Origin: Alphaproteobacteria bacterium
GTDB lineage: Bacteria; Pseudomonadota; Alphaproteobacteria; UBA828
Assembly (NCBI GenBank): GCA_963667785.2
Contig: CAXXMU010000001.1
Location: 896,001 to 960,000, forward strand
Length of the DNA: 64,000 bases
Direction: 5' to 3'
Shown here: piece after piece, positions 10,557 through 32,120 of the stretch
How positions within the stretch are numbered: the stretch's first letter is position 1
Layout: every line of letters starts with the position of its first letter
Position numbers and translations under genes: made by a program
The notes under the pieces: generated by a model
Told to the model about the DNA's origin: nothing
Database searches by the model: none
Seen by the model: the letters and a program-made list of their open reading frames with translations, nothing else

Positions 10557-10702
10557 AATTGGCGTTCGCGTGGACCGCGAGGATGCGGCGCGCGGGTCAA
10601 GAGGGCACGCCGGGAGGCGCGGCATGGGCCGCAGCCACCGGCGTTGCGCCTGCATAGGGGCGGGCCGAATGAGCGGCTCGCCACCGGAGTGAAGGAAACA
10701 AC

Positions 10703-12829
<2,127 letters not shown>

Positions 12830-12971
12830 GAGCCACCGCCCGGAGACGCGACACCTTGCAGCCGGCGCCCATGCTGCCCACATCAGGGAAAGGCGGCAGC
12901 GCCGGCGAGCCCTCGCATCGCCCTGCCGCGGCATGCGATTCGAGCCGGACGCAACGGCGGATGGACTGACA

Positions 12972-14369
12972 GTGAAAGCGTTGAACGCGATCAGGCTGTC
13001 GGGACGCGAGGTTCTGCCCTTGATCGAGGGCGGCAAGGGCATCGGCGTGACCAACGGCCTGAGCTCGGGCGCCTGGGCCGCCGCCGGCGGAGTCGGCACC
13101 TTCTCCGGCGTCAACGCCGACTACTACGACGAGCAGGGCCGGGCGGTGCCGCAGGTCTATCGCGGCCGCACCCGCAAGGAGCGCCACGAGGAGCTCGTCG
13201 ACTACGCGATCAGGGGCGGCATCGCACAGGCGCGGATCGCCCACGACGTCTCCGGCGGCGTGGGGCGGCTCCACATGAACGTGCTGTGGGAGATGGCCGC
13301 CGCCGAGCGCATCCTGCACGGCATTCTCGAGGCCACGCGCGGCCTGATCCACGGCGTCACCTGCGGCGCCGGCATGCCCTATCGACTCGCCGAGGTGGCC
13401 GCGGGCTACGACGTCCACTACTACCCCATCGTCTCCTCGGCACGCGCCTTCCGTGCGCTCTGGAAGCGTGCCTACCACAGCTTCTCCGACTGGATGGGCG
13501 GGGTCGTCTACGAGGACCCCTGGCGCGCCGGCGGCCACAACGGCCTCTCCAACAGCGAGGACCCCGAACAGCCCGAGCCCGCCTACCCGCGGGTCGCCGC
13601 GCTGCGCCGGCAGATGCGCGAATACGGCCTCGACGACGTGCCCATCGTGATGGCGGGCGGGGTCTGGTACCTGCGCGACTGGGAGGACTGGCTCGACAAT
13701 CCCGAGCTCGGCCCCATCGTCTTCCAGTTCGGCACCCGCCCGCTGGTGACCGAGGAGAGCCCGATCTCCGAGCGCTGGAAGCGCAAGCTGCTGACCATGA
13801 AGGACGGTGACGTGAAGCTCAATCGCTTCAGCCCCACCGGCTTCTACTCGTCGGCGGTGCGCAACGACTTCATCAGGGAGCTGGCCCAGCGCGAGCAGCG
13901 CCAGGTCGCCTACACCGCCGAGCCCATCGGCGACCACGACCAGTTGTTCACGCCGGGACCGCGCGGGCGCTCCTTCTATCTGACCAAGGGCGATCTGGAG
14001 CGGGCCGAGGAGTGGATGGACCAGGGCTTCACCTCGGTGATGAAGACCCCCGATACCACGATCATCTTCGTCACCGACGAGAAGGCGCGCGAGATCAGGG
14101 CCGATCAGGCTGCCTGCATGGGCTGCCTCAGCGCCTGCCGCTTCAGCAACTGGGCGACGAACGAGCAGGGCTCGACCGGCAAGAAGACCGATCCCCGCAG
14201 CTACTGCATCCAGAAGACGCTGCAGGAGATCATCCACAGCGAGGACATCGACAACCAGTTGATGTTCGCGGGCCACGCGGCCTTCCGCTTCGCCGACGAT
14301 CCCTTCTACAGCAATCGCTTCATCCCCACCGTGCGCCAACTCGTCGAGCGCCTGCTCACCGGCGACTGA
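12972..14369 (+). CDS. Nitronate monooxygenase / 2-nitropropane dioxygenase-family flavoprotein
   Basis: LIEGGKGIG, GAGMPY, AGGHNG, MAGG, QFGTR, C-terminal CxxCxxxC. Confidence 0.8.
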   Translation: MKALNAIRLSGREVLPLIEGGKGIGVTNGLSSGAWAAAGGVGTFSGVNADYYDEQGRAVPQVYRGRTRKERHEELVDYAIRGGIAQARIAHDVSGGVGRLHMNVLWEMAAAERILHGILEATRGLIHGVTCGAGMPYRLAEVAAGYDVHYYPIVSSARAFRALWKRAYHSFSDWMGGVVYEDPWRAGGHNGLSNSEDPEQPEPAYPRVAALRRQMREYGLDDVPIVMAGGVWYLRDWEDWLDNPELGPIVFQFGTRPLVTEESPISERWKRKLLTMKDGDVKLNRFSPTGFYSSAVRNDFIRELAQREQRQVAYTAEPIGDHDQLFTPGPRGRSFYLTKGDLERAEEWMDQGFTSVMKTPDTTIIFVTDEKAREIRADQAACMGCLSACRFSNWATNEQGSTGKKTDPRSYCIQKTLQEIIHSEDIDNQLMFAGHAAFRFADDPFYSNRFIPTVRQLVERLLTGD

Positions 14370-14411
14370 CCGGGCGCCGGCGCCCTCCGCCGTGCTCCCT
14401 TCACCGCTTCC

Positions 14412-15383
14412 TCACCGCTCCTTCACGTAGGGAACGCCGCTCGCCTTCGGCGGCACCGCCTTGCCGACGAAGCCCGCGAGCAGCAGCACCGTGAGAAGGT
14501 AGGGGAGTGCCTGGATCGCCTGCACCGGGATGATCCCGACGCCGGGAACGTCGACCCCCTGGAGCCTGGCCTGAACGGCGTCGGCGAAGGCGAAGAGGAA
14601 GCAGGCGAAGAGCGTCGGCACCGGGCGCCACTTGCCGAAGATCAGCGCGGCCAGGGCGAGGTAGCCCATGCCGGCGGTCATGTCGCGCACGAAGAGCGCG
14701 TTCTGGGCGATGGAGAGGGAGGTGCCTGCGACGCCGCAGAGGATGCCGCAGACGATCATCGCCCGGTAGCGCATGCCGGCCACCGAGATGCCGGCGGTGT
14801 CCACCGCCTCCGGCGCCTCGCCCACCGCGCGGAGCCGCAGCCCGAAGCGGGTCTTGTAGATGAACCACGCCGCCAGCGGGACCATGCCGAGCGCGAGATA
14901 GACGATCAGATTGTGGCCGCTCGCGATCTCCGAATAGATCTGCGCGAGGAAGGGCACGTCGCTCAGCCGGTCGGCGAAGGGGAAGTGAATCGGGCGGAAG
15001 CGCGCGTCGTCGGCGACCAGGGGCGTGTGCCCGCCCTGGCCGAACCAGGCGAGCGACAGCACCGGCCCGAGCCCCGCCACCAGGATGTTCAGCGCCATGC
15101 CGGAGACCACGTGATCGCCCCTGTGGGTGACGCAGGCGAAGGCGTGGACCATGGCCAGCGCCACCGAGGTGCCGATCCCGGCGAGCAGCCCCACCCAGGC
15201 GGAGCCGGTGACGTAGGCCGCCGCCGCGGCGGCGAACGCCGCCCCCAGCATCTTGCCTTCGAGGCCGATATCGACGACGCCCGAGCGCTCGGCGAACATG
15301 CCGGCGAAGGCGGCGAGGATGAGCGGGGTCGAGACGCGGAGCGTCGCGTCGACGACGAGAACGATCCAGGTCACCGCTTCCAT
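14412..15383 (-). CDS. ABC transporter permease (nucleoside/BMP family)
   Basis: ERSGVVDIGLEG, GLRLRAVGE, GYLALAALIFG; hydrophobic. Confidence 0.9.
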   Translation of the reverse strand: MEAVTWIVLVVDATLRVSTPLILAAFAGMFAERSGVVDIGLEGKMLGAAFAAAAAAYVTGSAWVGLLAGIGTSVALAMVHAFACVTHRGDHVVSGMALNILVAGLGPVLSLAWFGQGGHTPLVADDARFRPIHFPFADRLSDVPFLAQIYSEIASGHNLIVYLALGMVPLAAWFIYKTRFGLRLRAVGEAPEAVDTAGISVAGMRYRAMIVCGILCGVAGTSLSIAQNALFVRDMTAGMGYLALAALIFGKWRPVPTLFACFLFAFADAVQARLQGVDVPGVGIIPVQAIQALPYLLTVLLLAGFVGKAVPPKASGVPYVKER

Positions 15384-15385
15384 GT

Positions 15386-16513
15386 TTAGGCCGCTGCCAT
15401 GCTGCCGCCGTGGCGCGCGCGGCGTGTGAACAGCTTCTCGATCCGCCCGCGGAACATGTGCTCGAGCGCGCCGGAGAAGAGAATCACCAGGCCCTGCAGC
15501 ACCACCACCATGTCGCGCGTCACGTTGGGCATGTCGAAGGCGAGCTCGGAGCCGCCCTGGTAGAGCACGCCGAAGAGCAGCGCGGCCAGCAGGATGCCCA
15601 CCGGGTGGTTGCGACCCATCAGCGCCACGGCGATGCCGACGAAGCCGTAGCCCGCCGTGAATTCGAGCAGCAGGCGGTGGTGCACGCCGATGATCTCGTT
15701 GACGCCCACGAGACCCGCGAGCCCGCCCGAGATCGCCATCGCCAGCATGATCGAGCGCGCCGGCGAGATGCCGCCATAGACCGCGGCCGATTCGTTGTGG
15801 CCGACGGCGCGGATCTCGTAGCCCCAGCGCGTCCGCCAGACGAAGAACCAGAAGAGCACGAGGCAGAGCGCGGCGACCACGATGCTCAGGTTGAGCGACG
15901 AGCGGCCGATGTCCGAGCCGAAGGCGGCGAAGACGTCGTGGACGAAGGGGAGCCACGCATTGGCCTCGAAGGTGCGGCTCTCGGCCGCCTGCTGGCCCGG
16001 CTTGATGAAGACCTCGACCAGGAGGTAGGTCATCAGGGCCGCGGCCAGGAAGTTGAACATGATCGTCGTGATGACGATATGGCTGCCGCGCTTCGCCTGC
16101 AGCCAGCCGGGAATGAAGGCCCAGAAGGCGCCGAAGGCCATGGCGCCGGCGATGGCGAGCGGGATCACCACGGGCGCCGGCCAGTGGCCCAGGAAGAGCG
16201 CGATCAGTCCGGCGCCGAGCCCGCCGAGATAGGCCTGGCCCTCGCCGCCGATATTGAACAGGCCGCAATGGAAGGCGATGGCGACGGCGAGGCCGGTGAA
16301 GACGAAGTTGGTGGTGTAGTAGAGGGTGTAGCCGATCGCCTCGGGATAGCCGACCGCGCCGAGCACGAGCAGCCGCAGCGCCTCGAACGGGTTCTCGCCG
16401 ATCAGCGCGATGATGATCCCGGCGATGAGGAGCGCGAGTGCGAGGTTGATGAGCGGGACCAGCCCGTGGGTGACCCAGGCCGGTGCCTGGGTCGGCCCGC
16501 CGAAGCCGCTCAC
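15386..16513 (-). CDS. ABC transporter permease (nucleoside/BMP family)
   Basis: GLFNIGGEGQ, GYEIRAVG, GYGFVGIAVALMGRNHP; GTG start overlaps the ATPase stop. Confidence 0.9.
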   Translation of the reverse strand: MSGFGGPTQAPAWVTHGLVPLINLALALLIAGIIIALIGENPFEALRLLVLGAVGYPEAIGYTLYYTTNFVFTGLAVAIAFHCGLFNIGGEGQAYLGGLGAGLIALFLGHWPAPVVIPLAIAGAMAFGAFWAFIPGWLQAKRGSHIVITTIMFNFLAAALMTYLLVEVFIKPGQQAAESRTFEANAWLPFVHDVFAAFGSDIGRSSLNLSIVVAALCLVLFWFFVWRTRWGYEIRAVGHNESAAVYGGISPARSIMLAMAISGGLAGLVGVNEIIGVHHRLLLEFTAGYGFVGIAVALMGRNHPVGILLAALLFGVLYQGGSELAFDMPNVTRDMVVVLQGLVILFSGALEHMFRGRIEKLFTRRARHGGSMAAA

Positions 16514-18111
16514 CCGCCCCTGGCCTCCGCGTCCGCCGGGCGCTCGCCGGCCATCATCAGCCCGAGCGTCCGCTCGTCCGCCTCGGCCTGCGCGACCTCG
16601 CCGACGATCCTGCCGCCGAACATCACGAGGATGCGATCCGCCAGCGACATGATCTCGTCGAGCTCGACCGAGACCAGCAGGATCGCCTTGCCCGCATCCC
16701 GCATGGCCACGAGCTTGCTGTGGATGAACTCGATGGCGCCGATATCGACGCCGCGGGTCGGCTGGCCCACCAGCAGCACGTCCGGGCTGCGGCCCATCTC
16801 GCGCCCGACCACGATCTTCTGCTGGTTGCCGCCGGAGAAGTTGGCGGTGCGGAGCTGTGGCAGGGGCGGGCGCACGTCGAAGTCCTCCATGGTGCGCCTG
16901 ACGCCGCCGACCACCGCGCCCCGGCTCATCAGGGCGCCCGTGTTGTAGCGCCGCTCGCGGTGGTAGCCGAGGACGCCGCTCTCGGAGGCGTCGAAGGCGG
17001 TGACCAGGCCCATGCGCTGGCGGTCCTCCGGCACATGGCCGAGCCCTGCACGGCGCATGGTCCGTGCCGCCTCGGCATGACCGCCGGCAGGCGCCGGCGT
17101 GCCGCCCATGGCGATCGTGCCTCCTTCGCGGGCGAGCGTGCCGGCGAGCGCCTCCAGCAGCTCCGACTGGCCGTTGCCCGCGACGCCGGCGATGCCGACG
17201 ATCTCGCCGGCGTGAACGGCGAAGCTCACGTCGTGGACGCGGAGCACGCCGCTGCGGTCGCGCACCGCGAGGTTCTCGACCTGCAGCATCGCCTCGCCCG
17301 GCTCGGCCGCGCCCTTCTCCACGCGCAGCAGCACGCTGCGGCCCACCATCATCGCGGCGAGCTGCGCGCGGTCGGTCTCGGCTGTGTCCACGTGGTCGAC
17401 CACGCGGCCCGCGCGCATCACCGTCACCCGGTCGGTCAGCGCCATGATCTCGCGCAGCTTGTGGGTGATCAGGACGATGGTGCGGCCCTGCTCCCTGAGG
17501 GCGCGGAGGATGCGGAAGAGGTCGTCGACCTCCTGCGGCGTCAGCACGCCGGTGGGCTCGTCCAGGATCAGGATGTCGGCGCCGCGATAGAGCGCCTTGA
17601 GGATCTCCACCCGCTGCTGCAGGCCGACGGGCAGGTCGCCGACGATGGCGTCGGGGTCGACGTCGAGTCCGTACTCGCGCTCCAGCCGCTCCAGCTCCTG
17701 CCGGGCCTCGCTGAGCGTGGAGCGCAGCAGGTAGCCCTTCTCCACGCCGAGCACCACGTTCTCGAGCACGGTGAAGGTGTCCACGAGCATGAAGTGCTGG
17801 TGGACCATGCCGATGCCGTGGGCGATGGCATCCTCGGGCCCCCTGATCGAGACCGGTTCGCCGCCCACCCTGATCTCGCCGCTGTCGGCCTGGTAGTAGC
17901 CGTAGACGATGCTCATCAGGGTGGACTTGCCGGCGCCGTTCTCGCCGATGATGCCGTGGATCGTGCCGGGGGCGACGGCGACCGACACGTCCTCGTTGGC
18001 GTGCACCGGGCCGAACCACTTCTCGACGCCGACGGTCTCGAGCGCGGGCACGCCCTCCCCGCCGGAGGAGCCGCCCCCTCCGGCGGCCCCCCGGTGCTCC
18101 TCCTCCGGCAT
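16510..18111 (-). CDS. ABC transporter ATP-binding protein (tandem ABC)
   Basis: GENGAGKST, LDEPT, GVAGNGQ, FSGGNQQK, QPTRGVD. Confidence 0.95.
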   Translation of the reverse strand: MPEEEHRGAAGGGGSSGGEGVPALETVGVEKWFGPVHANEDVSVAVAPGTIHGIIGENGAGKSTLMSIVYGYYQADSGEIRVGGEPVSIRGPEDAIAHGIGMVHQHFMLVDTFTVLENVVLGVEKGYLLRSTLSEARQELERLEREYGLDVDPDAIVGDLPVGLQQRVEILKALYRGADILILDEPTGVLTPQEVDDLFRILRALREQGRTIVLITHKLREIMALTDRVTVMRAGRVVDHVDTAETDRAQLAAMMVGRSVLLRVEKGAAEPGEAMLQVENLAVRDRSGVLRVHDVSFAVHAGEIVGIAGVAGNGQSELLEALAGTLAREGGTIAMGGTPAPAGGHAEAARTMRRAGLGHVPEDRQRMGLVTAFDASESGVLGYHRERRYNTGALMSRGAVVGGVRRTMEDFDVRPPLPQLRTANFSGGNQQKIVVGREMGRSPDVLLVGQPTRGVDIGAIEFIHSKLVAMRDAGKAILLVSVELDEIMSLADRILVMFGGRIVGEVAQAEADERTLGLMMAGERPADAEARGG

Positions 18112-20823: not shown

Positions 20824-21123
20824 ATGGCTAGCCGCGACTTCGCGAAGAAACGGCGGCGCAATCTCGAACGCTTCCACCAGCGCACCGAGGAGCGCCGCGC
20901 CGCCGACCGCGCCCGCACCGTCCACCTGCCGCCGATGGCGGTGGAGCTGTTGGAAGCGTTGCCGCGCGAGGGCAGTACCTGGGTGTTCCCGGGCAACAAC
21001 CGGGACGGGCGCTACACCGGCGGCGGCCTCGACCATGTCTGGCAGACCGTCCGCGCCAGGGCCGGACTGGAAGACGTCCGGCTGCACGACCTCCGCCACT
21101 CTTTGTGCGGCGTAATCTCCTAG
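20824..21123 (+). pseudogene. Tyrosine integrase fragment ending at HDLRHS
   Basis: RTVHLPPMAVELL...WVFPG...WQTVRARAGLEDVRLHDLRHS, then unrelated residues and a stop; N-terminal domains missing. Confidence 0.8.
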
Positions 21124-21320
21124 CACACCGTAATCATTGATTTTATTTTTCTCATACAAGATCCGTAATCGAATAGTCACCGGATTCGATCATGTTCCAG
21201 GTGTCGCATGCCGCATGTCACGCCTGCTGCCCCCATCCGCCGCGATCCCTAAACGGTTACCGCATGCCCGCGCCCCACGATCCGTGAGGGGCATCGGAGA
21301 GGTCGCGGCCGCAAGCTCCA

Positions 21321-21610
21321 TCAGGCCGCGCCAGCAGGTCCGTGTTCGAGAGCTGGCCCCGGAACCGGTGCTTCATCACCGCCAGCCCCCCGGTCACCAT
21401 CGGCGCCGCGAACGAGGTCCCGCCCGCCACCCAGGTGCCGCGCTCCCCCGCCGCGCCGGTCTCCTCGTCCGGCCCGAAATAGCCAGGGCGACGCCGTCGC
21501 CCGGGGCCGCGATGCACCACGCGGCCGCAAGACCGCAGCGGTTCGAGTACGCCGCGATCTCCCCGTCCTCTCCCACCGCGACCACCGCCACCGTGTTCTC
21601 GCGTAGCTCC
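21321..21610 (-). pseudogene. Frameshifted S8 (subtilisin-like) peptidase remnant
   Basis: AYSNRCGLAAAWCIAAPG in one frame and GTSFAAPMVTGGLA (catalytic Ser motif) in another; boundaries approximate. Confidence 0.7.
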
Positions 21611-22203
21611 GCGCGTGATCCCCGCCTCCAGGCTCGGAGACGCCGCGACAATCCCGTTCCGCAGGCAGTAGGGCTGGTTCGGCGCGCAACGCGTGTCCTC
21701 CCTGAGCTTCCCGGCGCTAAAGCCGCTTCGCGCCGAACGCTCCGGCCCAGGCCCCGGTGTCGAACACGCCCGAGGCCTCCTCGTGGCCGCCGCCGTGGAG
21801 CTTTCCGACCGGATGAGCGTTGCCAGCCGTGCCGGAGATGAAACGCCCGTCGGTCGGCTCCGTGCCGGTCCACCTGAGCAACCCGTCCCCGCGCCCCCCA
21901 CTGGCGTCGCCGCCGCCCCGCTGGAACCGGAATTCGAACTCTCCCGCTTCCCGCCGGATTCCCAATCCACCGAAGCGCCATGGCTGGACCGTCCGCCGAA
22001 AAAGCCCGGGGCCCGCTACGCCCCCGGCGCCATGCGCCAAGACGTTCAGCCGAGCCCGGCCTCGGGATCCGCAAAGGCAGGGCCTGAGGGTTTGCCATTC
22101 AACAGGCCAGCCGACGCTCAGCATCGGCGATTATCGGAACAAACGCCGAGGAAACACCAAGACGCGACCACATCGCGCATTCTGTCCCCCTTTGAAAAGA
22201 CAC

Positions 22204-23634
22204 CTACTCGTCAGACTCATTGAGAGCCAGCCGATCACGAAGTACCCGATTCTCCATTGCCATGGATCTAATTCGACCAACATCCATTCCTGTAAGTCGC
22301 AGGAAATGGAGATGAAACAGGGCGTCCAGTCTAAGACAAATACCATACATCTTACTGTCACCAATGCCCCTTGCCCTGCGCTCTACTCTCTTGTCATAGT
22401 GTGTCAAATAGTTCCTCATGTCAACTATGTCTTGCACCAGAGACTTTATTTCATTTGTCGTTCCAAACAGATCCTCAAAGGGCTCAATCAGTCGCTTTAT
22501 TCTCTTTCGCAAAGAAATCTCGTTCGCGTACTTCAGTCTGGACTCCATGAAATTTCTTCTCTCGGGCGGCACTAATTCGATAGTGGTTGCACGCAACCAC
22601 TCAAAGTCGTTCAAATTCATTTCAGTTTCGTCAGAGGTTCTTCTATGAAGAGTTTCTAGAGCCTGTACAAGTGACAGGAAGACGCCATTCAAATTCCTGT
22701 GGGCACCAATTTTAGAAGATAGGTACAAATCAAACGCTGGATATATAGTTTCGTAGTCGGCCAACCATCTCACGATCGTTTTTCCGATATCACCAGAGAT
22801 ATCATTGTATCCAAAAGTCTTGGAGATGCGTGTATCCGGTTGTTGATCTTGCAGTTGACTGTGATAGAAAATACTCGTCACAACCTCCCGATCCCATTTA
22901 TCCAGCTTGTTACTTGAATAACCCTTTACCCATTCTATCGCCACAATCTTGTTCATCACCAAGCAAAGGAAAGTGTGTATCCGGTGTAACATCACGAAAC
23001 AGCGTTCAACGGGGAGCAGCCCCTTCGACGTTAGAGAAACATGCATACGCTGAGAAATCGTGGATGACAGATGAGATACCTTGTAGTCGGGAAGAGAAAA
23101 TGAAGGCGAGAATACGAACTGGAGTCGAATTCCCTCTGGCAAGGCTATAGAAATGTCATCCGGCTGCGTGTAATGAATCGCCCACTCTGCCTTTTCGGAA
23201 TCCGAGTTTAACTTTGGACGAAATCCGGAGATTGAAAACCATTCGTTGAGATTCTCCAACGAAAACTCTATCCGTGAGAACGCAATTGGTTCGTCTTCGA
23301 CAAATGAAGCTCCAACGAACGCCGCGCCAACATGAAATCTCGATTCAGACACATACCCTTCGATAATTCGCACGAAATAGAAGGGATCGTCTACAGCTAC
23401 GCATTTCTCCAAAGTTACCGGGTCATTATCGACTATACCCAAAATACGTTGGGTTTCTTTGCCAAAGGGACTGTTACTTTGAAGCTGTTGGGGATCAACG
23501 GCGGTAGGTCGATGGACTAGTCTCAGCGTTATTTCGCCTGATGTCGAGATACGTAGAGTTCCGGGATAGTGCTGGCCCGGATGGCTTGGAAGCCAAAAGA
23601 ATCCGGGTTTGTCGATGGGATCGGACAGTCGCAT
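22204..23634 (-). CDS. ApeA-like protein (ApeA N-terminal domain plus HEPN)
   Basis: N-terminal GFFWLP...GTL, FLSLVQALE, HEPN motif RNYLTH; low GC. Confidence 0.8.
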   Translation of the reverse strand: MRLSDPIDKPGFFWLPSHPGQHYPGTLRISTSGEITLRLVHRPTAVDPQQLQSNSPFGKETQRILGIVDNDPVTLEKCVAVDDPFYFVRIIEGYVSESRFHVGAAFVGASFVEDEPIAFSRIEFSLENLNEWFSISGFRPKLNSDSEKAEWAIHYTQPDDISIALPEGIRLQFVFSPSFSLPDYKVSHLSSTISQRMHVSLTSKGLLPVERCFVMLHRIHTFLCLVMNKIVAIEWVKGYSSNKLDKWDREVVTSIFYHSQLQDQQPDTRISKTFGYNDISGDIGKTIVRWLADYETIYPAFDLYLSSKIGAHRNLNGVFLSLVQALETLHRRTSDETEMNLNDFEWLRATTIELVPPERRNFMESRLKYANEISLRKRIKRLIEPFEDLFGTTNEIKSLVQDIVDMRNYLTHYDKRVERRARGIGDSKMYGICLRLDALFHLHFLRLTGMDVGRIRSMAMENRVLRDRLALNESDE

Positions 23635-24000
23635 TGTCAGCCCTTGCTATGGCGTCATTTTTTGGAATGATGTGAGCGAGCCCGGTTCAGCCGTTCGATC
23701 CGAGGATCTGTTTTGATTTCGAAACAGCTGTCCCCGGTTTGGTAGCACCCAAGGGATAGCCGTGTGTAAGCCCTGTCAAGCGGAGCTGAGGTGTTACCAC
23801 TCCAACCGGAGCGCTTCGGCGGGTACTTCGGTCTCTGGGATGCATCACGCTTTATCGGCACTGCCCGAGGACCGATGCTCACCGCAATCGTGACGGACCA
23901 TTCCGGTGCCCTGTCCCCAGCCACTCTGAGGCGCTTCGGTGCCGGCCACCTCACTCATAGAAATCGCTACATCGTACCCGGGGACACCGACATGGCTACC

Positions 24001-24324
24001 TCAAATCGCCGCCGCGGCTTGGCTGTCGGGTCTCACGTCAACGTGTACCGTGACCCGCAGATTGCTGTCGAGCGCCGCAAGCATTTTCATCAGCCGGTCG
24101 AGCGTGAAGCGCCCGAGGTCCGCGTTCCGAATCCGCGAGAAATCCGCAGCGGCGAAACGGGTCAGCGCGGCGGCCTTGCGGACCGACAGACCGCGGTCGT
24201 CGAGCACCCTGATGATGCGGGCCGCCACCACCGCCTTGGCTTGCTTTAGGTCCGCGTCGGAATCGCCGATGTCGCGGAAAACGTTGCCGCTGCCCCCAAC
24301 CAACTCGAATTTGCTCTCGCTCAT
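24001..24324 (-). CDS. HigA-like XRE/HTH antitoxin
   Basis: GSGNVFRDIG...LKQAKA...AADFSRIRNADLGRFTLDRL; start overlaps toxin stop. Confidence 0.85.
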   Translation of the reverse strand: MSESKFELVGGSGNVFRDIGDSDADLKQAKAVVAARIIRVLDDRGLSVRKAAALTRFAAADFSRIRNADLGRFTLDRLMKMLAALDSNLRVTVHVDVRPDSQAAAAI

Positions 24325-24671
24325 GGCATCGTCTCCCTCCTCAGCCGCGCCAGCCGGCCCCGGACCAGATCGATCTCGGCCTTCGGCGTCCCGATTCCCG
24401 TCTTCGACTTCTTCCGGAACGCATGGATCACCCAGAGCCGGCCCGCCAGCTCCGTCACGTAGACCACCCGCCAAGCGTCCGTACGATAGGGGACGGCATT
24501 CTGCATGACGCCCGGCCCGAGACCCTTCAGCGGTTTCGCGATGTCCGCCTTGCCGCCCTCCGCCCCGATCGTGAGCGCCGTGCCGATCCGATCCCGCACC
24601 GTTGTGGGGAACGACTCGAACGTCTTCCGCGCTGCCTTGACCCAACCGACAGGCCTTGTGTCAAGGTTCAT
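24321..24671 (-). CDS. RelE/HigB (Gp49-like) toxin
   Basis: KPLKGLGPGV...RVVY...VIHAFRKKSKTGIGTP; toxin-first order. Confidence 0.85.
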   Translation of the reverse strand: MNLDTRPVGWVKAARKTFESFPTTVRDRIGTALTIGAEGGKADIAKPLKGLGPGVMQNAVPYRTDAWRVVYVTELAGRLWVIHAFRKKSKTGIGTPKAEIDLVRGRLARLRRETMP

Positions 24672-24677
24672 GGAGTA

Positions 24678-24707
24678 TGTTGTCAGTGGTGACTACACCT
24701 GTCAACA
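24678..24707 (-). promoter_or_regulatory. Imperfect palindrome (probable TA operator) overlapping a TTGACA -35 box
   Basis: tgttgtcag...ctgtcaaca; minus strand reads TTGACA-17nt-CAACAT-5nt-ATG with no SD. Confidence 0.5.
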
Positions 24708-24721
24708 GGCCGGACGATGGA

Positions 24722-24901
24722 TTGCGGCATTCGTATGCTTCGATGGCGCTGGCCCTCGGCGAGAGGCTCACGATGATCGGGAAGTTGCTCGGTCACACGC
24801 AGGTGCAGACGACCGCCCGGTATGCCGATCTGGCGCGGGACTCGATCCAAAACGCGGCTGCCCGGATCACCGGGAGCATCGGTGGGGACCTCACCCCTTA
24901 G
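24722..24901 (+). pseudogene. Tyrosine integrase C-terminal fragment starting at LRHS
   Basis: LRHSYASMALALGERLTMIGKLLGHTQVQTTARYA (box II His and catalytic Tyr). Confidence 0.85.
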
Positions 24902-25384
24902 CATGGTTGATGATCGTCGCGCGCATCACGCTACGGCCTTGCTCGGACGGCGCACGCCCGGCGGTCTCGACCACCAGCTCTCTGAACTCACCGCCTCCCA
25001 TGCCGGTACCGCAAAAGTACGAGTTCTCATGTCTGACCGACATCGATTGCATTTCCAGATCAACATTTTCTATGCTGCGACATCCTAAATCGCACGCTAT
25101 CCTCCAACATGGCGACAATATTTGTAGACATTACCGAAGATACGAAGAACATTGAGAGAAACAACGACACAATTAGTAGGACTAGTCAAATATATCTCAA
25201 CTATACTCTTGTCTACGATGGGGTATTCTATCTTTTTTATTTTGAATTGTTACATAAATACTGAAATATGTGATTCTATTTTTGTATTTCGGCAATCTAT
25301 GCGTGATATTCTCAAATAATATTGGCGCTTGCTCATCCTCTGCTTTCTGCTATGGTAGGCCTACGATACAGCAGGAGATCTCTC

Positions 25385-25567
25385 ATGACCATCCAAGTGC
25401 AGGACCAGCCGGTCGAGCATTCAGAGGACATTCGCTCTGCCATCCTACAGGATCAGCCGGATAATCCGGCACTCCAGCGTCTGAAGGGGCGCCTGTTGGC
25501 CGACTCCGAGGCGAGCGAAGTCATCACCAGCTATGACCGCATGCACCACCGGCACAGCCGCTCGTGA
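25385..25567 (+). CDS. yhhA: YhhA-type cyclophane (triceptide) RiPP precursor, 60 aa
   Basis: CAGGAG SD; leader DNPALQRL; C-terminal core SYDRMHHRHSRS (Y-D-R, H-H-R, H-S-R); abuts a radical SAM gene. Confidence 0.8.
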   Translation: MTIQVQDQPVEHSEDIRSAILQDQPDNPALQRLKGRLLADSEASEVITSYDRMHHRHSRS

Positions 25568-25577
25568 GTTTCCTCGC

Positions 25578-27713
25578 GTGGCCGCCCCCAGGATCACCTC
25601 ATACCTGGTAAAGGTGGCCTCGCGATGCAACTTGGACTGTGATTACTGTTACGTCTATCATCATGCAGACCAGAGTTGGCGCTCTATGCCGCGACTCTTG
25701 TCTTCGGAGTACCGTGACGCCTTTGTCGCGCGCCTCGCAGAGTATGTTGGAGAAACAGGCCTGTCTCGTGTGTCGGTGGTATTCCACGGAGGCGAGCCGC
25801 TCCTAGCCGGACCACAATGTCTGGCTGATTTTTCAGAAGCAATTCGCGCATGTGTCGAAGCAAAAGTCGACATCGGCGTACAAACCAATGGCCTTCTTCT
25901 AAGCGACTCGGCACTCGACGTCTTCGAGCATGCGGACATTGCCGTATCGCTTAGTTTGGACGGCCCTCGCGCGGCTAATGACAAGCATCGGAACACTCGT
26001 AAGGGCCGATCGAGCTTCAACAGAGTTCTGGCTGCCCTCCAACGTCTAAAGAAACGTCCGGGTATATTTGCTGGCATTATAGCCGTTATAGATGTTTCTA
26101 CTCCTCCGCGAGACTTGTTTGAGTTTTTTGACGAGCACAAACCTCCCAAGCTCGATTTTCTGCTGCCCGATGCACACAATTTGTGTCCTCCTCCGGGTCG
26201 CGATTCTGAACCAGCCACATACGAACAATGGCTAGTCAGTGCATTCGACCTGTGGCTCGATCAGTACTCCCACATTCCCGTACGAACATTTGAATCTCTT
26301 CTGGATTCGGTGTCCGGCCTGGCATCTCACACTGACGCTTTCGGACTTGGAGATGTCAGCCTCATTTCAGTTGAGACGGATGGGAGCTATCACGATCTCG
26401 ACGTCCTGAAGGTCACCCGGGAGGGAGCTACTAAACTTGCCGGTACGGTGCTCGATACTTCAATCGCGACAGTCGCTGCCTCGGACGCTGTCGCGGCTCA
26501 TCGGAAAAGACTTCAAAAGGAAGGCCTTTGCCGCCAGTGTCAAGAGTGTCCGGTGATGCAAGTCTGTGGCGGTGGCTCTCTTCCACATCGGTTTGGTCCG
26601 AACGGATTCGATCACCCCACTGTCTACTGTCGGGAAATGCTTGCACTCATCACACATGTGCGCGCCCGGCTAGATGGAATGTTGCGGAAGTCGTATCCCT
26701 CACCTGTTCTCCGCGCTCCTAGTGTTGACTTAGCCGAATTCGAGCTTGCTGAAACCGCAGCTGGGATCATACAGGAGCTATACAAAAGTGCTCAAGACCA
26801 GGCGCATTTGTCATTCATCAACACGCTTCGAACGCTCGACTCCCAAGATCAAGCGATACACGCCTCGGTAAAGTCCGTTCTGGATTCGCCACCCGATTTC
26901 ATCACCAGATTGGCAACACACCCCGGCGCTATAGCCTGGCAACGGACCATGGCAGCGCAAATGGCCGGGAAAACCGCCCATACGGTGGATGGGTCACCGG
27001 TGCAGGCCGACTGCTCCTATATCCGCTTCCTTCTTAAGCACCCACCCTCCGATCACAATCTCAGTATCGCTGAGGACGACCCATGGCTTCGCGCTCCCTT
27101 TGGCGATGCCATCTACTTCGAAACGGAGGAAGTCGCCGCCAACGGACGAGCAGTCGTCGAACAGGCATTCCAAATAATTGACCGCTGGCGTCCCGCTCTT
27201 GGACAGGAGATGCGCATTGCCTCTAAGGCTGTCCAATTCGTTCGTGACCCGCTCGCCAATCCAAAGAAGATCGTGTCATTCAGCGACAATTCAGTTCCCG
27301 GTGCGCTCTATGTTTCGATTATGCAGGACGGAAGCTTGATTGACTCATATGATCTAGCCGATTCATTACTCCACGAGCATCGACACCAAAAGCTCTACCT
27401 TCTCGAACGGCAAAACCCTACAGTTGAGCCGACTTCCTTATTGGTTCCGTCGCCTTGGCGGGAAGACCCACGGCCGCCCTCGGGTCTACTGCATGCGATG
27501 TTCGTCTTCGTGGAGCTGCGGCGCTTTTGGAGTTTCGTTCACGATCAAGGTCCAGCCCGGCTCCACAACCGCGCTGCCAATCAGCTTCGTGATACCAATG
27601 CGCACCTTGCGCAAGCTTTTGCCACGCTTGAAAATTGTCCACTCACTCAGACTGGAGGCCAACTCGTGGAAGTTCTCAAATCGGCGTTCGCCGCCAACAA
27701 TCTAGCGGCCTGA
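25578..27713 (+). CDS. yhhB: Radical SAM/SPASM cyclophane-forming maturase fused to an aKG-HExxH domain
   Basis: CNLDCDYC, FHGGEPLL, QTNG, SLDG; SPASM CRQCQECP...CGGG...YC; C-terminal LLHEHRHQKL and SPWREDPRP..GLLH. GTG start at 25578 is inferred. Confidence 0.85.
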   Translation: MAAPRITSYLVKVASRCNLDCDYCYVYHHADQSWRSMPRLLSSEYRDAFVARLAEYVGETGLSRVSVVFHGGEPLLAGPQCLADFSEAIRACVEAKVDIGVQTNGLLLSDSALDVFEHADIAVSLSLDGPRAANDKHRNTRKGRSSFNRVLAALQRLKKRPGIFAGIIAVIDVSTPPRDLFEFFDEHKPPKLDFLLPDAHNLCPPPGRDSEPATYEQWLVSAFDLWLDQYSHIPVRTFESLLDSVSGLASHTDAFGLGDVSLISVETDGSYHDLDVLKVTREGATKLAGTVLDTSIATVAASDAVAAHRKRLQKEGLCRQCQECPVMQVCGGGSLPHRFGPNGFDHPTVYCREMLALITHVRARLDGMLRKSYPSPVLRAPSVDLAEFELAETAAGIIQELYKSAQDQAHLSFINTLRTLDSQDQAIHASVKSVLDSPPDFITRLATHPGAIAWQRTMAAQMAGKTAHTVDGSPVQADCSYIRFLLKHPPSDHNLSIAEDDPWLRAPFGDAIYFETEEVAANGRAVVEQAFQIIDRWRPALGQEMRIASKAVQFVRDPLANPKKIVSFSDNSVPGALYVSIMQDGSLIDSYDLADSLLHEHRHQKLYLLERQNPTVEPTSLLVPSPWREDPRPPSGLLHAMFVFVELRRFWSFVHDQGPARLHNRAANQLRDTNAHLAQAFATLENCPLTQTGGQLVEVLKSAFAANNLAA

Positions 27714-27717
27714 ACAC

Positions 27718-28716
27718 TTGATCGTACTCCCCGTCGACTCCCTCCCATCCGCACCTGCCGACCAGCACGGGGCTTTGAGGAACTACTTTTGCGACAAGGA
27801 CGCACGAGCAAAGCGAACAAAGGACGGCTGGGAACTGACCCTAGCTTGGTCCGATGATCTTGATCGTCATGTCGATCCGAAGCTCCCAATTGGCCTCAGC
27901 TGGTGGAGCAATGGCATCACGCCCGCGGATATGGTACTAGCCATCCGCCCTTCTGGACGACTACTCACTTCCCTTTACGATACTTGGGCACTGTATGGCT
28001 GGAGTGAATGGCTTGCAGGCCAGACCACTCCAGACGCTTCCACGGTAGTCATTCTTCACGTCGATGATCATAGAGATCTCGACCCTCCGAGATTGTTCAT
28101 TGAAAACTCTCACCTTCGGGATCCTTTGACAGGCCGCAGTGTAGAACTTGACAACCCCGACAGCATTCGAAGTGCAATCCTGAGCGGCGCTGTAGGAATG
28201 GGAAGCTTCATGACACCATTTCTCCACGCAGTACCAAACGCTGAGGTGCGGCACCTTTGCCAACCTCCGAAAGCTTCGAGAACTCGCACCTACCAAATTC
28301 AAACACACGATATAGCCGATTCTCTTATCGATAAAGACGCACGCAGACCGGCAGTCTATCTCCATGAGAAAGTCGACGTTGTTGGACCCGGTACATATAG
28401 AGTAACACCCGATGTTGAAGAATGGTTGAGCGACATTGGGTCGGCCCCAATCCTACTTCACATTGACATGGACTTTTTCAACAACCGATATGATGGTGAC
28501 AGTGATTGGCGAGAGCGGGACAGTAATCTTGATCCACCTCTACAGGAAATTCTAGCCAAGATTGACAAATTGACCACCGCTTTGGAGGATAATGAGATTG
28601 CGTCGCGCATTGAACATATAGCAGTTGCATTCTCACCAGGCTTCTTTCCGGCCGAGCACTGGAGTACAGCTGCGGATCGCCTATTGCCGGCCTTAGAGCG
28701 ATTACATGGCAGCTAA
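27718..28716 (+). CDS. Arginase/ureohydrolase-fold (UPF0489-like) metallohydrolase
   Basis: HVDDHRDL (DxHxD) and HIDMDFF (DxD) metal motifs, SPGF near the C-terminus; 4 nt after yhhB. Confidence 0.6.
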   Translation: MIVLPVDSLPSAPADQHGALRNYFCDKDARAKRTKDGWELTLAWSDDLDRHVDPKLPIGLSWWSNGITPADMVLAIRPSGRLLTSLYDTWALYGWSEWLAGQTTPDASTVVILHVDDHRDLDPPRLFIENSHLRDPLTGRSVELDNPDSIRSAILSGAVGMGSFMTPFLHAVPNAEVRHLCQPPKASRTRTYQIQTHDIADSLIDKDARRPAVYLHEKVDVVGPGTYRVTPDVEEWLSDIGSAPILLHIDMDFFNNRYDGDSDWRERDSNLDPPLQEILAKIDKLTTALEDNEIASRIEHIAVAFSPGFFPAEHWSTAADRLLPALERLHGS

Positions 28717-29176
28717 GCGCTCTTCAAAGTCGAGCAGGCGCCGGAGGCCCGTACGGCCCACGCCGAAGCCGCCCCCCACAACTGCGAAGTCTAAGGAAGG
28801 CCCCATCTCTCCCGAAGATGTCCTCCTCAAGCGGACCCGGGGAACACCGGGCCGAGGAGACGGACCAGGTGGCGAGAAGTGGCGAGTCGAGGCTGCAGGC
28901 CAACGCGCCGGTCACGTCTACGTCAACGTCATAGACGAACCTCCAATTGGCACGCACGCTTCTATTCAAATTTTTCTGAACAAGAAGAGCCAAGGTCGCC
29001 AAATTGGTCGCGTCGCCTATCGGGCAGCCTGTGAAGAGAGTCAGCATGACACCATCTATGCCCACATGAGCAGGTCCAACCACGCCTCGCGTCGCGCCGC
29101 CGAGGAGGCTGGATTCGTGGACGTAACTCCAACGGGCCACGCACAGCTCATCATGCGCCGATCTCGCCAATTGTGA
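28706..29176 (+). CDS. GNAT-family acyltransferase
   Basis: QGRQIG acyl-CoA motif A and NHASRRAAEEAGF motif B; overlaps upstream gene. Confidence 0.75.
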   Translation: MAAKRSSKSSRRRRPVRPTPKPPPTTAKSKEGPISPEDVLLKRTRGTPGRGDGPGGEKWRVEAAGQRAGHVYVNVIDEPPIGTHASIQIFLNKKSQGRQIGRVAYRAACEESQHDTIYAHMSRSNHASRRAAEEAGFVDVTPTGHAQLIMRRSRQL

Positions 29177-29763
29177 ATCAGCACGCCACGCTGCCACCTT
29201 GGCTAAAGCCCTCGGCCCATACCGACATCCTTCATGTGGCTGCGAAGATACGCCCCGCACTTCGCACCGAGCTTACTATCCCAGTTTCACACAATGTTGT
29301 CCGTGCCTGGATGCGGCACTTAGGATGGTACACAGCTATCGACGGTGACGACTTCATCGTCGTATCACCCTCCCCCAGACTGGCTCGCATGATTCTTGCC
29401 ATAGATCGTGACGTCACTCCTCACACTTTTCGGCTGGGCCATGCACTTGGCTACCCAACTTGCTGCTGTCGTGCAGCCGCAGGCGTTGGAGAGCAAAATC
29501 TTGACACTTGGGCGCTTGAATTATCTCGACGACGCTTCATTGGGCGCTTCAAGCTCATTGATCCGACCCGCTATAGAGATGGAAACGCGCTAATCAGCCA
29601 TATCCCCTGCTCAACCTTCTGTCACGCTTCGCTTCAGATTGCCGAAGCCACACTCGCGGCTCTGCGTAGATCCAATTCACCATTGCCGGTCTTGCGTGCT
29701 CCGGCACTGAGAGCCTTCACTTCTAGCCTATTGCGACGAGACTTGACGCGTACCCATGCATGA
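29173..29763 (+). CDS. DUF483-like cysteine-motif protein
   Basis: LGHALGYPTCC and HIPCSTFC; GTGA coupling to the GNAT stop. Confidence 0.6.
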   Translation: MNQHATLPPWLKPSAHTDILHVAAKIRPALRTELTIPVSHNVVRAWMRHLGWYTAIDGDDFIVVSPSPRLARMILAIDRDVTPHTFRLGHALGYPTCCCRAAAGVGEQNLDTWALELSRRRFIGRFKLIDPTRYRDGNALISHIPCSTFCHASLQIAEATLAALRRSNSPLPVLRAPALRAFTSSLLRRDLTRTHA

Positions 29764-29788
29764 CGATGTGGACGCTGAGGCGCGCGAA

Positions 29789-31804
29789 TTAGAACCCGAG
29801 TTCCTTCTTTAGAACTTCAACTGTCTCCGTCACAGCGAGAACTTCATCCCTCGCAGCCCTTGCCGCCTCTACGAGCTCGGTAAGCTCCGCATCTGGCACA
29901 CCGCGTTGATATGCCTCTTCCACACGAAAAAATAATCGCTTCGCTTCCCCTAGATACTCCAAAGCCTCTTTCTTACGACCCTTATCAACTAACCAATTCC
30001 CAAAATCACGGCAGGCTTGGGCCAAATGATGATGACCGCCGATAGCCTCCGACGTTCCCAAGTCAGACCAGACACCACCTATTGCTCGACGACTTTCTTG
30101 AACCGCTTCCGAGAAAGCGGCCTCACCTTTCTCGGCATTGGCGCGCATCAACAAGAGCGCGCCTCGTAGGTCGAGTATTCTCGACCCATGAACGGATTGT
30201 GCGGTGAAATCGTGCGCAGCAAGGAGTTCATTAATAGCTTCTATGGCGGGTTCTCTATCCCCTTGTGAACCTGCCTCTATGGCGGCCGCCGCCAAATCGC
30301 GTGTACAATGTATCCAGGTATCACCATTGCGATCAAGTGTTGCCAACGCGCTCGAATACGCCTTGATTGCGCCATCCCACCGAACACTGCGCCCTTTCGC
30401 TTTCTCGGCCAGAGTAGCTAGGGTCTGCCCAAATCGCCAATATCCTTCACCGTCTGAACTAACCATTCGCAAATACCAATCCCACAGTCTCGCTGCCTCC
30501 TTCAATCGTGCTGAGGATTTCGCCTGAGCAGCCGCGCTCGGAGAGGACGCATCACGGTCACCCAGACGTTGAAGTGCTATAGCACGAATACGTGCGGCCT
30601 CCGCGAACCGCTTGGCCAATGCAGGCGACACTTGATCCAGAACCGCGACATCGTCGCCTGCCAGGATCAGACCCGCAGCGTGTTCAATAAGTGCTTGCGA
30701 GCCCTTCTTGCCATGATCGCTATCCTTGAAGGCGTCTATTGCTCGGCGATAGCCCTTCATCGCAAGCTCAATTTCAGGGCTAGGTTTGTTATCAACGACG
30801 GCCGCGTGTCTGGCTTCCAGTGGAGACACCGGCTGCGCTATCCACGCGGGATGAAATTCAAGAGCTCGAGTTAATGTTGCAAAAAACACGTCTGCGTCTT
30901 GGCCAAGTATATAGAACTTGTTCGGTCCTGAAAGCAGCCGTCTGACCTCACTTCTTGTAATCGAATAATCGTTCTCGTGAAATATCCAATAAATTACCAA
31001 ATTCGGAAACTCTTCAGACGCATCAAACAGAAGCTCCATCACACCATCTTCGCCTCCGGCGTACCCGACTACGACTAAGAATCCTGTATCCTTTAGCATC
31101 CCGAACATTGCGCCTCTCATGGACAATGTCCGTCCTGCCGCTAGCATTGCTTGCCGGCTGTTGAGTGGGCTGTACGCATGTAACGAGCCATGCAGATGTA
31201 CTACTTGCGGCATCGCAGGGCGAGAAGATATCCGCTTTAGGGCTTCAAGACCATCCGCGATCACTGGAACATGACCGGCGAGAAGAATACCTTCCAGAAT
31301 GAGGCGATCGAAATTTGTGGTAAGTACGCTATGCACATAATGCTGTACAACAAGTTCTCCCAAACAAATATGGGCCCAATTGATCTTTCCAGACGCCTTT
31401 GCGACACTCCTTTGAATGATTTCACGTTGCTGCGGGTCCGAACGGATGTGCTTCTCAAATATTTCCGAGTAGTAGTCTGACCAAGTTGCTCCTTTCCTAT
31501 CAGTCAAGTGATTCTTTTCCTTAAGCCACTTGAGCGCACTCATTGCATCGACAGAGGTTGCTCTTGTGCCTGAATATTGTCGATACAGGGATATTGCACA
31601 TTCCTGAGCGATTTCACTGGCCAGAGGAACTCCGGCGCTTGCCGAGCACCCCGCACCGATCAGAAACACCGCGCCTCCACAATTCGGATCGTCTGGAATT
31701 TCCGAAACCTGTGGCCAGATCGACGTGCGTTTCAGCAACTTGAGTTGGTTAGCCAATTCGTCGATGTCGGCCTCTCTCGCCAATTTGCCGGTATAATCAG
31801 CCAT
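29789..31804 (-). CDS. SIR2-family (putative NADase) protein with helical/TPR-like C-terminus
   Basis: FLIGAGCS, LTTNFD, HLHGS, VVGYAG; Ala-rich helical repeats in the C-terminal half. Confidence 0.8.
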   Translation of the reverse strand: MADYTGKLAREADIDELANQLKLLKRTSIWPQVSEIPDDPNCGGAVFLIGAGCSASAGVPLASEIAQECAISLYRQYSGTRATSVDAMSALKWLKEKNHLTDRKGATWSDYYSEIFEKHIRSDPQQREIIQRSVAKASGKINWAHICLGELVVQHYVHSVLTTNFDRLILEGILLAGHVPVIADGLEALKRISSRPAMPQVVHLHGSLHAYSPLNSRQAMLAAGRTLSMRGAMFGMLKDTGFLVVVGYAGGEDGVMELLFDASEEFPNLVIYWIFHENDYSITRSEVRRLLSGPNKFYILGQDADVFFATLTRALEFHPAWIAQPVSPLEARHAAVVDNKPSPEIELAMKGYRRAIDAFKDSDHGKKGSQALIEHAAGLILAGDDVAVLDQVSPALAKRFAEAARIRAIALQRLGDRDASSPSAAAQAKSSARLKEAARLWDWYLRMVSSDGEGYWRFGQTLATLAEKAKGRSVRWDGAIKAYSSALATLDRNGDTWIHCTRDLAAAAIEAGSQGDREPAIEAINELLAAHDFTAQSVHGSRILDLRGALLLMRANAEKGEAAFSEAVQESRRAIGGVWSDLGTSEAIGGHHHLAQACRDFGNWLVDKGRKKEALEYLGEAKRLFFRVEEAYQRGVPDAELTELVEAARAARDEVLAVTETVEVLKKELGF

Positions 31805-32120
31805 TACTTCCTTTGATCTCCGCCAGAGTTACCCCACTTATCGACCTATCTCGCAATTAGGCAAGAAAATACTTCGGTCATTCCCAGCGTCCCCGTTCAT
31901 TGAAGCTATACCTTGAGACACCACACACGATCTCTTTGCCTCATAGGCTCTCCGGCATCCAGACCGGTAGCCGTGCGTCCGTCAACCCCGCAGATCTCTG
32001 CGCTCTTTCCCGCGCCGGTCCGGCAGCTGGCAGGGAGCCCGTCATCGCATAGGAATCGGCTGAATTCCACATCCAGGCGTTCTGAGTCGTCGCCAGTCGC
32101 GGCCGGCTGGCGTTGCGGGG

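Follow-up and report, generated by a model that had tools for sequence, protein, structure and literature searches.

In a 64,000-nucleotide stretch of an alphaproteobacterial genome (called the window throughout), an operon for a peptide of the Yhh type that is made on ribosomes and modified after translation (RiPP) ends next to a convergent gene for a protein with a SIR2 domain and a helical-repeat tail (called Sir2-TPR for simplicity). The best-supported explanation of this arrangement, to which we assign a probability of about 0.5, is that the yhh peptide pathway and Sir2-TPR are functionally coupled. The identities of the genes, their conservation and their linkage are directly observed, and they suggest a role of the pair in immunity.

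In the mechanism that we propose, YhhB would cross-link three aromatic-x-Arg motifs of the precursor YhhA into cyclophanes and a fused HExxH domain would hydroxylate Asp. Since neither a peptidase nor an exporter is conserved with the operon, the product may keep its leader and remain intracellular. Sir2-TPR would be an optional effector that depletes nicotinamide adenine dinucleotide (NAD+), and its repeat tail may sense the state of the Yhh pathway through the peptide YhhA, through the leader of that peptide or through a complex of Yhh enzyme and peptide. Infection would disturb or induce the pathway, NAD+ hydrolysis would be switched on and abortive infection would follow. The mechanism has a parallel in the TIR (FxsC) and TPR (FxsT) partners of the sister Fxs RiPP system. 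We lean slightly towards a peptide pathway that restrains the NAD+-hydrolysing enzyme (NADase) much as an antitoxin or a guard would, because such control would explain why Sir2-TPR depends on yhh but not the reverse. A preliminary description of this DNA had proposed that the modified peptide acts inside the cell as a ligand, guard or inhibitor of the Sir2 protein, an interpretation that our analysis supports in part.

The yhh operon and the Sir2-TPR protein

Five tightly packed genes on the plus strand at 25.3-29.8 kb of the window form the operon: yhhA, a fusion of yhhB with an HExxH domain, open reading frame 3 (ORF3), a GNAT acetyltransferase gene and ORF5 (Table 1). YhhA scored 58.3 bits against the precursor model NF041705 (cut-off 36). 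Its probable start is M22, and the YhhA homologue of the yhh locus L080 begins at the Met equivalent to it. The core ends in ...VITSYDRMHHRHSRS and carries the three aromatic-x-Arg motifs YDR, HHR and HSR. YhhB scored 489.4 bits against NF041707 (cut-off 445) and 514.7 bits against the FxsB family model TIGR04269 (cut-off 370). Its residues 542-714 matched the alpha-ketoglutarate-dependent (aKG) HExxH hydroxylase model TIGR04267 with 133 bits (cut-off 40); YhhB and the hydroxylase are therefore fused into a single protein, a form shared by most homologues, which are 700-729 residues long when complete. In the homologue alignment C32, C36 and C39 of the CNLDCDYC motif (residues 32-39) are nearly invariant, while C336, C339, C345 and C366 of the SPASM domain and H614, E615 and H618 of the HEHRH motif (residues 614-618) are invariant. 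By these features YhhB is a predicted radical S-adenosylmethionine (radical SAM)/SPASM three-residue cyclophane synthase.

The three remaining operon genes probably tailor the peptide further. ORF3 is probably a tailoring enzyme of the arginase/deacetylase fold (Atlas lead UPF0489, 0.93) and may be a peptide arginase, its match to NF052474 pept_arginase (E 2.8e-5) lying far under the cut-off of that model. ORF5 has the invariant residues GYPxCC, H84, C146 and C150 and a confidently predicted structure (pLDDT 88.8) that gave no Foldseek match at E<=0.001; the best VIA structure matches were a protein of unknown function (Z 7.2) and NleE (Z 4.9), and a peptidase fold was not seen among these weak Foldseek/VIA matches. 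None of the operon genes in the window matched a transporter or peptidase family in Pfam or NCBIfam. A family-2 glycosyltransferase (GT2) of the yhh type was absent from the scan of the window and from a genome search with one query.

The stop codon of the Sir2-TPR gene lies 25 nt from that of ORF5. Sir2-TPR scored 29.2 bits against SIR2_2 (PF13289, cut-off 24.5) and contains the motifs GAGCS (residues 50-54), TTNFD (162-166) and HLHGS (203-207). N164, D166, H205 and G206 are invariant across 24 homologues, and N164 and H205 are presumably the catalytic Asn/His pair of SIR2 NADases. Pfam did not call TPR in the protein of the window itself; its homologues carry TPR families, and in the AlphaFold2 (AF2) model (pLDDT 79.9) residues ~320-671 consist entirely of helical repeats. 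Foldseek searches with this model returned the SIR2-APAZ protein of SPARSA as best match (8y80_E, 1.6e-7), followed by DSR2 and the SIR2-STAND protein Avs5, and also TPR scaffolds. The best PADLOC matches were models of SIR2 proteins associated with prokaryotic Argonaute (pAgo) (PDLC02419, 2.1e-28; SIR2 part only), next to a match to the single-gene candidate PDC-S65 (4.7e-9). Sequence and model thus assign the SIR2 domain to the defence NADase type seen in SPARSA and DSR2, and NADase activity is predicted. No NCBIfam model matched Sir2-TPR at E<=0.01, including HaaT, FxsT (NF040586) and FxsC (NF040588/TIGR04276).

These results bear out what the preliminary description had reported of the genes, namely an operon with neither exporter nor leader peptidase, its end 25 nt from a convergent Sir2 gene, intact Sir2 motifs and a TPR-like tail.

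Among Sir2-TPR homologues the mean pairwise identity is 55% in the SIR2 domain and 33% in the tail (minimum 17%). The tail family is very small: with a tail profile, only 24 representatives out of 1.84 billion matched at E<=0.001, and all strong matches were proteins of 600-675 residues with the tail behind a SIR2 domain, or fragments. Tail-bearing Sir2 proteins form about 40 clusters at 90% identity (P0122-P0163), as compared with more than 3,000 YhhB homologues. Viral contigs contained remote SIR2 relatives only (21-28% identity) and no YhhB relative, and plasmids likewise contained remote SIR2 proteins only (25-27% identity). No Sir2-TPR was found in 401 genomes of the family of a Mesorhizobium genome, which is a sample and not proof of absence. 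Co-folding of Sir2-TPR with YhhA gave a score of 0.01, which speaks neither for nor against binding.

Linkage of Sir2-TPR to yhh genes

The 34 closest Sir2-TPR homologues (E<=1.7e-88, all spanning the tail) were compared with 82 weaker SIR2 matches that have other tails. Thirteen of the 34 lie on a contig with a YhhB homologue, as against none of the 82. Two of these 13 pairs were seen in DNA (P0123 in locus L080 and P0137 in locus L109). The other 11 were called from longest contigs of exactly equal size for the Sir2-TPR protein and one of 120 listed YhhB homologues; the sizes include 4,200,769, 1,575,905, 64,202 and 57,377, and at 57,377 both proteins bear the name of Allomesorhizobium camelthorni. 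As six of the 11 size-matched contigs are at most 14.3 kb long, the two genes must be close together on them. The remaining 21 homologues received no linkage call and are not to be counted as negatives.

Two arrangements of adjacent genes were found. The Sir2-TPR gene is convergent with the operon and downstream of it in the window and at L080, where the protein is 81% identical, the position is the same and GT2 is missing; it is divergent and directly upstream of yhhA at L109, where the identity is 41% and GT2 is present. Sir2 proteins with as little as 34-36% identity still have their genes adjacent to yhh. In a quickly built YhhB tree the 14 linked rows are scattered among 37 unlinked loci and require 6 gains or losses, of which supported branches enforce at least 5, and one YhhB clade contains two distant Sir2-TPR lineages, so that at least one lineage replacement took place. 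At least four of the seven full-length tail clusters at 50% identity are yhh-linked. Sir2-TPR distances and the distances of the YhhB partners are correlated (Mantel test of the two matrices, r = 0.77, 0/2000 permutations as high), a value that is descriptive only because kin are not independent. Closely related operons with and without Sir2-TPR were also found (P0101 and L100). Judged from these sequences, the association of Sir2-TPR with yhh has been kept, lost and re-made, for which hitch-hiking alone is not an easy explanation, and Sir2-TPR seems to be a small family that exists largely as a companion of yhh operons.

The yhh operon in other genomes

A genome scan (6 proteobacterial loci) and a scan of metagenomes that used the HExxH domain as query (80 loci) together gave 74 distinct yhh loci. 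Gene presence was determined by tblastn and counted among loci of sufficient length for the gene in question: YhhA was present in 58/59, ORF3 in 64/66, GNAT in 55/59 and ORF5 in 30/59. GT2 was the last gene in 29/51 loci and lay upstream in 2 further ones. The idea that Sir2-TPR substitutes for GT2 was rejected, as L109 has both and 22/51 loci have neither. The YhhA core, ...SYDRMHHRH[N/S]RS, hardly varies across 58 loci on contigs of 36-68% GC content (GC), and the leader is variable apart from an NPALQRL motif. On a Rhizobium tumorigenes plasmid (L178) ORF3 and GNAT are annotated as a single 447-aa protein (10319-11662), and a His-Xaa-Ser (HxsBCA) radical SAM peptide system follows just downstream of the operon (13891-17017).

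The flanks of 65 yhh loci (384 ORFs, excluding 9 ORFs of L145, a near-duplicate of L144) were compared with Pfam, the labels defence-type and mobile-element being our own labelling of the matches. No exporter or peptidase recurred among the 384 ORFs. Defence-type neighbours occurred at 17/65 loci and comprised pAgo with SMEK, Shedu, type I restriction-modification (RM), OLD, reverse transcriptase (RT), HEPN/RES, AbiE, AAA_21, dCTP deaminase, SIR2 and TIR proteins; integrase, transposase, Tn7, relaxase or replication genes occurred at 20/65. Functional coupling is supported by other yhh loci whose immediate neighbours are also of NADase type, namely an unrelated 435-aa SIR2_2 protein at L132 and TIR_2/TIR proteins at L158.

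Three further arrangements were noted among these genomes. At L158 the operon lies between genes for TIR-domain proteins, with TIR_2 directly upstream on the same strand (5213-5959, +) and a 1280-aa TIR-KAP NTPase (11922-15764, -) converging on ORF5, in the position that Sir2-TPR has in the window. At L081-L083 and on the Novosphingobium pentaromativorans plasmid pLA4 (L177:4214-7122), genes for a Piwi protein (short pAgo) and SMEK are directly upstream of and divergent from yhhA, and this pair adjoins two integrase genes. Contig C2 of genome G000 carries a second FxsB-like radical SAM gene of that genome (L179:9391-10632, -; 56% GC), which scored 280.8 bits against the YhhB model, below the cut-off. 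Just upstream of it, a 90-aa ORF (L179:10942-11214, -) with three HPGSGGNFVSAPS repeats is probably another cyclophane-type precursor.

Weighing the coupling

Several observations weigh against functional coupling. Of the 53 yhh loci whose flanks reach 2.5 kb or more, only 2 (L080 and L109) have a Sir2-TPR homologue, and none was found anywhere in five yhh-bearing genomes, so serving this Sir2 cannot be the main role of the peptide. Size matching of contigs is indirect evidence, and the DNA context comes from three Sir2-TPR genes (window, L080 and L109); in all three, Sir2-TPR and yhh are on opposite strands, never in one operon. Chance alone should place an occasional SIR2 or TIR gene beside yhh, given that these operons are located in defence islands in any case. 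The variable tail (33% identity) opposite a nearly invariant core peptide fits a conserved ligand pocket less easily and argues mildly against a simple pocket of that kind; a tail this variable would be more usual in a sensor for varying foreign proteins, as in DSR2. Tail-only searches did not find the tail joined to a different effector, and hhalign gave a probability of only 0.33 for the tail against FxsT, hence no similarity. The pairing pointed out in the preliminary description is thus non-random when viewed from the Sir2 side but rare when viewed from the yhh side; the count of co-occurrence around yhh homologues that it had called for gave the 2/53 above, beside more frequent defence-type and mobile-element neighbours.

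These points would sit well with Sir2-TPR as an independent single-gene defence system, a small DSR2-like protein whose tail binds a phage protein and which shares islands with yhh merely as cargo. The architecture of a SIR2 domain followed by an alpha-solenoid, the Foldseek matches to DSR2 and Avs5, the PDC-S65 match, the fast-evolving tail, the opposite strand, the many yhh loci without Sir2-TPR and the frequency of unrelated defence genes (Shedu, type I RM, OLD, RT, pAgo, AbiE) beside yhh all agree with it. It does not readily account for the co-occurrence with YhhB, which is rare (above cut-off in 1/400 other genomes of the class, a sample) and yet shares contigs with 13 of the 34 close homologues and none of the 82 others, nor for adjacency in two arrangements down to 34-36% identity, the lineage replacement and the yhh-linked majority of tail clusters. 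We regard this alternative as unlikely.

The asymmetric dependence, in which Sir2-TPR needs yhh and not vice versa, would also be expected if the pair were an addiction module with no anti-phage role, in which the Sir2-TPR toxin stabilises the cassette and the Yhh product neutralises it; the location of the cassette in a mobile island beside a classical toxin-antitoxin pair fits as well. The related operons P0101 and L100, with and without Sir2-TPR, indicate by contrast that the gene is easily lost. NADase-based toxin-antitoxin modules, moreover, usually double as abortive-infection systems. An addiction module without a part in defence is accordingly very improbable in our judgement.

Comparison with known systems

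The YhhA/YhhB pathway was reportedly first described in a 2022 paper of the Morinaka group in the Journal of the American Chemical Society. The window operon resembles it in having a precursor and a radical SAM enzyme above the model cut-offs, an HExxH domain and three aromatic-x-Arg motifs. It differs in the fusion of the hydroxylase to YhhB (the common form), in three more conserved genes, in the lack of GT2 and in the attached Sir2-TPR gene. According to two reports, YhhB forms a His-containing three-residue cyclophane and YhhC erythro-beta-hydroxy-Asp (PMC11499958, PMC12186529). By sequence the window operon belongs to the YhhA/YhhB triceptide system, and formation of cyclophanes and beta-hydroxy-Asp is predicted.

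The genome scan also gave 70 actinobacterial FxsB loci (L007-L076), which share one gene pattern. A cluster of FxsT proteins of ~1,323 residues was found in 66/70 of them (the representative has KGGVGR-AAA and FxSxx_TPR, matches NF040586 with 1040 bits and scores weakly on the HaaT model), a TIR-like FxsC cluster in 51/70 and a two-domain SLATT cluster, divergently upstream of fxsB, in 42/70. The statement in the preliminary description that such systems are linked to TIR-like and TPR proteins therefore stands. A cluster of alpha/beta hydrolases was also present, in 55/70 loci. In a 2026 preprint FxsC is an active TIR protein and FxsT combines ParA with an inactive TIR, and its authors propose a coupling in Fxs between cell death and the release of the modified peptide (10.64898/2026.10.19.760177). 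The two systems have in common a TIGR04269-family radical SAM/SPASM maturase, often with an HExxH extension, that adjoins a domain of the NAD+-consuming type and a TPR protein. They differ in the effector, which is TIR in Fxs and SIR2 here, in the ParA/AAA module, which is missing here, in the union of effector and repeats in one 671-aa protein here, and in the end of the precursor, which is HSRS in YhhA and not FxSxx. In addition, the Fxs partners are near-obligate, whereas Sir2-TPR is facultative from the side of the RiPP. Because the tail is not homologous to FxsT, the parallel with Fxs is one of analogy only.

DSR2 stands alone and senses a phage tail tube protein (on its mechanism, see PMC11850899). 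It shares with Sir2-TPR an N-terminal domain of the SIR2 NADase type with the Asn/His pair kept and a following alpha-solenoid sensor region, and many DSR2 chains matched the Sir2-TPR model (E 2e-5 to 2.5e-4). Sir2-TPR differs in being ~300 residues shorter and tied to a RiPP operon, and no DSR model was among the 9 PADLOC families matched at E<=0.01. SPARSA provides the best sequence and fold matches for the SIR2 domain; the match covers positions 9-254 of the 558 of the model and has no APAZ part, and no Piwi gene lies beside Sir2-TPR in the window, its neighbours being ORF5 and a HU gene. Thoeris, in which ThsA (SIR2-SLOG) is accompanied by a TIR ThsB gene, was not represented among the PADLOC matches, and no TIR domain was found among the scanned proteins of the block and the window.

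An NAD+-using enzyme that acts on a cyclophane peptide is also known from the minviopeptin cluster (MicA, B, C, D), where MicD ADP-ribosylates the triceptide only after cyclophane formation (PMC12912966). On this precedent Sir2-TPR could be a RiPP tailoring enzyme, with the tail recruiting the peptide and the SIR2 domain ADP-ribosylating it or stripping an acyl group added by GNAT. The presence of a GNAT gene in the same operon and the specific linkage to yhh fit such a role, and an NCBIfam model named 'cyclophane-containing RiPP biosynthesis TPR protein HaaT' exists, on which FxsT scores weakly. MicD is, however, an enzyme of the ADP-ribosyltransferase fold inside its cluster and not a sirtuin, whereas the protein studied here has a sensor-like tail and a SIR2 domain closest to defence NADases in sequence and fold. 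Sir2-TPR gave no NCBIfam match, to HaaT or otherwise, at the threshold given above, in none of its three known DNA contexts does its gene run in the same direction as the operon, and the core peptide is the same in the minority of loci with Sir2-TPR and in the majority without it. A tailoring function thus appears quite improbable to us.

Genomic setting

The coordinates of the features in the window are listed in Table 1. The cassette of operon and Sir2-TPR gene comprises six genes in 6.5 kb and occupies a block of 25-32 kb with a GC of 0.50-0.555, compared with 0.65-0.71 alongside (genome ~70%). Housekeeping genes (PNPase, ABC transporter) stop near 19.2 kb. Beyond this point follow integrase fragments, the ApeA-HEPN gene, the Gp49/helix-turn-helix (HTH) pair and the yhh/Sir2-TPR cassette, and past the cassette genes for HU, a SEC-C/TPR protein, a PAPS-reductase-like protein, DUF2201, a NACHT protein and a Strawberry-notch-like helicase. 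By its gene content the region past 19.2 kb is a mobile island that carries defence cargo, and the 25-32 kb block is a cargo cassette gained horizontally. The NACHT protein is probably another defence cargo gene of the same island. Both the shared block of lower GC and the defence-type surroundings had been recognised in the preliminary description, and both were confirmed, the surroundings comprising ApeA-HEPN, the Gp49/HTH_37 pair and the NACHT protein. No Sir2-TPR was found in 80 relatives searched (20 of the same genus), which again is a sample and not proof of absence. A scan for promoters and terminators at 24.8-32.2 kb gave 4 terminator-like sites compared with 6.4 expected.

Table 1. 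Positions of the cassette genes and of neighbouring features in the window.
Feature	Position (nt)	Strand	Family or basis
yhhA, triceptide precursor, ~60 aa from the probable start M22	25385..25567 (ORF 25322-25567)	+	NF041705
yhhB fused to HExxH beta-hydroxylase domain (YhhC-like), predicted, 726 aa	25533..27713	+	NF041707, TIGR04269, TIGR04267
ORF3, probable arginase/deacetylase fold, UPF0489-like	27718..28716	+	NF052474 (weak); Atlas lead
ORF4, GNAT N-acetyltransferase	28706..29176	+	PF00583, PF13302
ORF5, conserved protein without curated family	29173..29763	+	Atlas lead DUF483, 0.93
Sir2-TPR, 671 aa; SIR2_2 NADase-type domain ~45-317, helical-repeat tail ~318-671	29789..31804	-	PF13289
Low-GC cargo block with yhh operon and Sir2-TPR gene	24950..32000		GC 0.50-0.555 vs ~0.70
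ApeA-HEPN gene	22204-23634	-	Pfam; PADLOC PDC-S58
Gp49/HTH_37 pair, classical toxin-antitoxin	24001-24671	-	Pfam
NACHT/AAA_16 STAND protein, 1645 aa, 62% GC (below its surroundings)	43500-48437	-	NACHT, AAA_16

The island was also compared with metagenome contigs, which probably include the source of the assembly and so give no independent support. The tyrosine integrase is split into two fragments (20824-21123 and 24656-24901, +), between which a low-GC cassette with ApeA-HEPN and Gp49/HTH is located (21137-24650). Metagenome contigs connect 21099 with 24746 with 15 other letters in between, so that relatives appear to have the integrase without the 3.6-kb insert. In the metagenome runs that contain the window, a second yhhB allele (113 differences in 816 bases, window 25542-26357) is deeper than the window's own, and the backbone adjoining the cassette has 5-40x the depth of the low-GC cargo; many related elements there hence seem to be without this cargo. 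In three runs, contigs pass from HU/SEC-C sequence back into integrase sequence (32225 to 20285 and 32731 to 20175), which could mean that the genes of related elements are ordered differently or that the element has a circular form.

Discussion

The chemistry of YhhAB and the link of Fxs to TIR and TPR proteins are already known. Searches of the open literature, with subscription papers and supplements outside their scope, found no paper that connects SIR2 to triceptides or to YhhB. A RiPP is usually taken for an antibiotic or a signal that the cell secretes. The yhh triceptide operon has an almost invariant product, comes with no exporter or peptidase and rides mobile or defence islands across Proteobacteria and beyond. 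Taken together, yhh and Fxs point to a general and experimentally untouched link between cyclophane peptides and cell-suicide immunity by NAD+ depletion. In its widest form, this would mean that immune systems acting by NAD+ depletion have their peptide arm in the cyclophane RiPP operons of the FxsB family (Fxs, Yhh), a leader-bearing cytoplasmic Yhh peptide setting the activity of Sir2-TPR or TIR as ligand, guard substrate or antitoxin; this is a speculation, and we consider it unlikely to hold.

Functional coupling of Sir2-TPR to the yhh pathway is directly testable, as the cassette is small. It could provide the yhh family with a function, none having been met in the literature searched. 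If the idea holds even in its widest form, a ribosomally made and post-translationally cross-linked peptide would be used as an intracellular immune signal.

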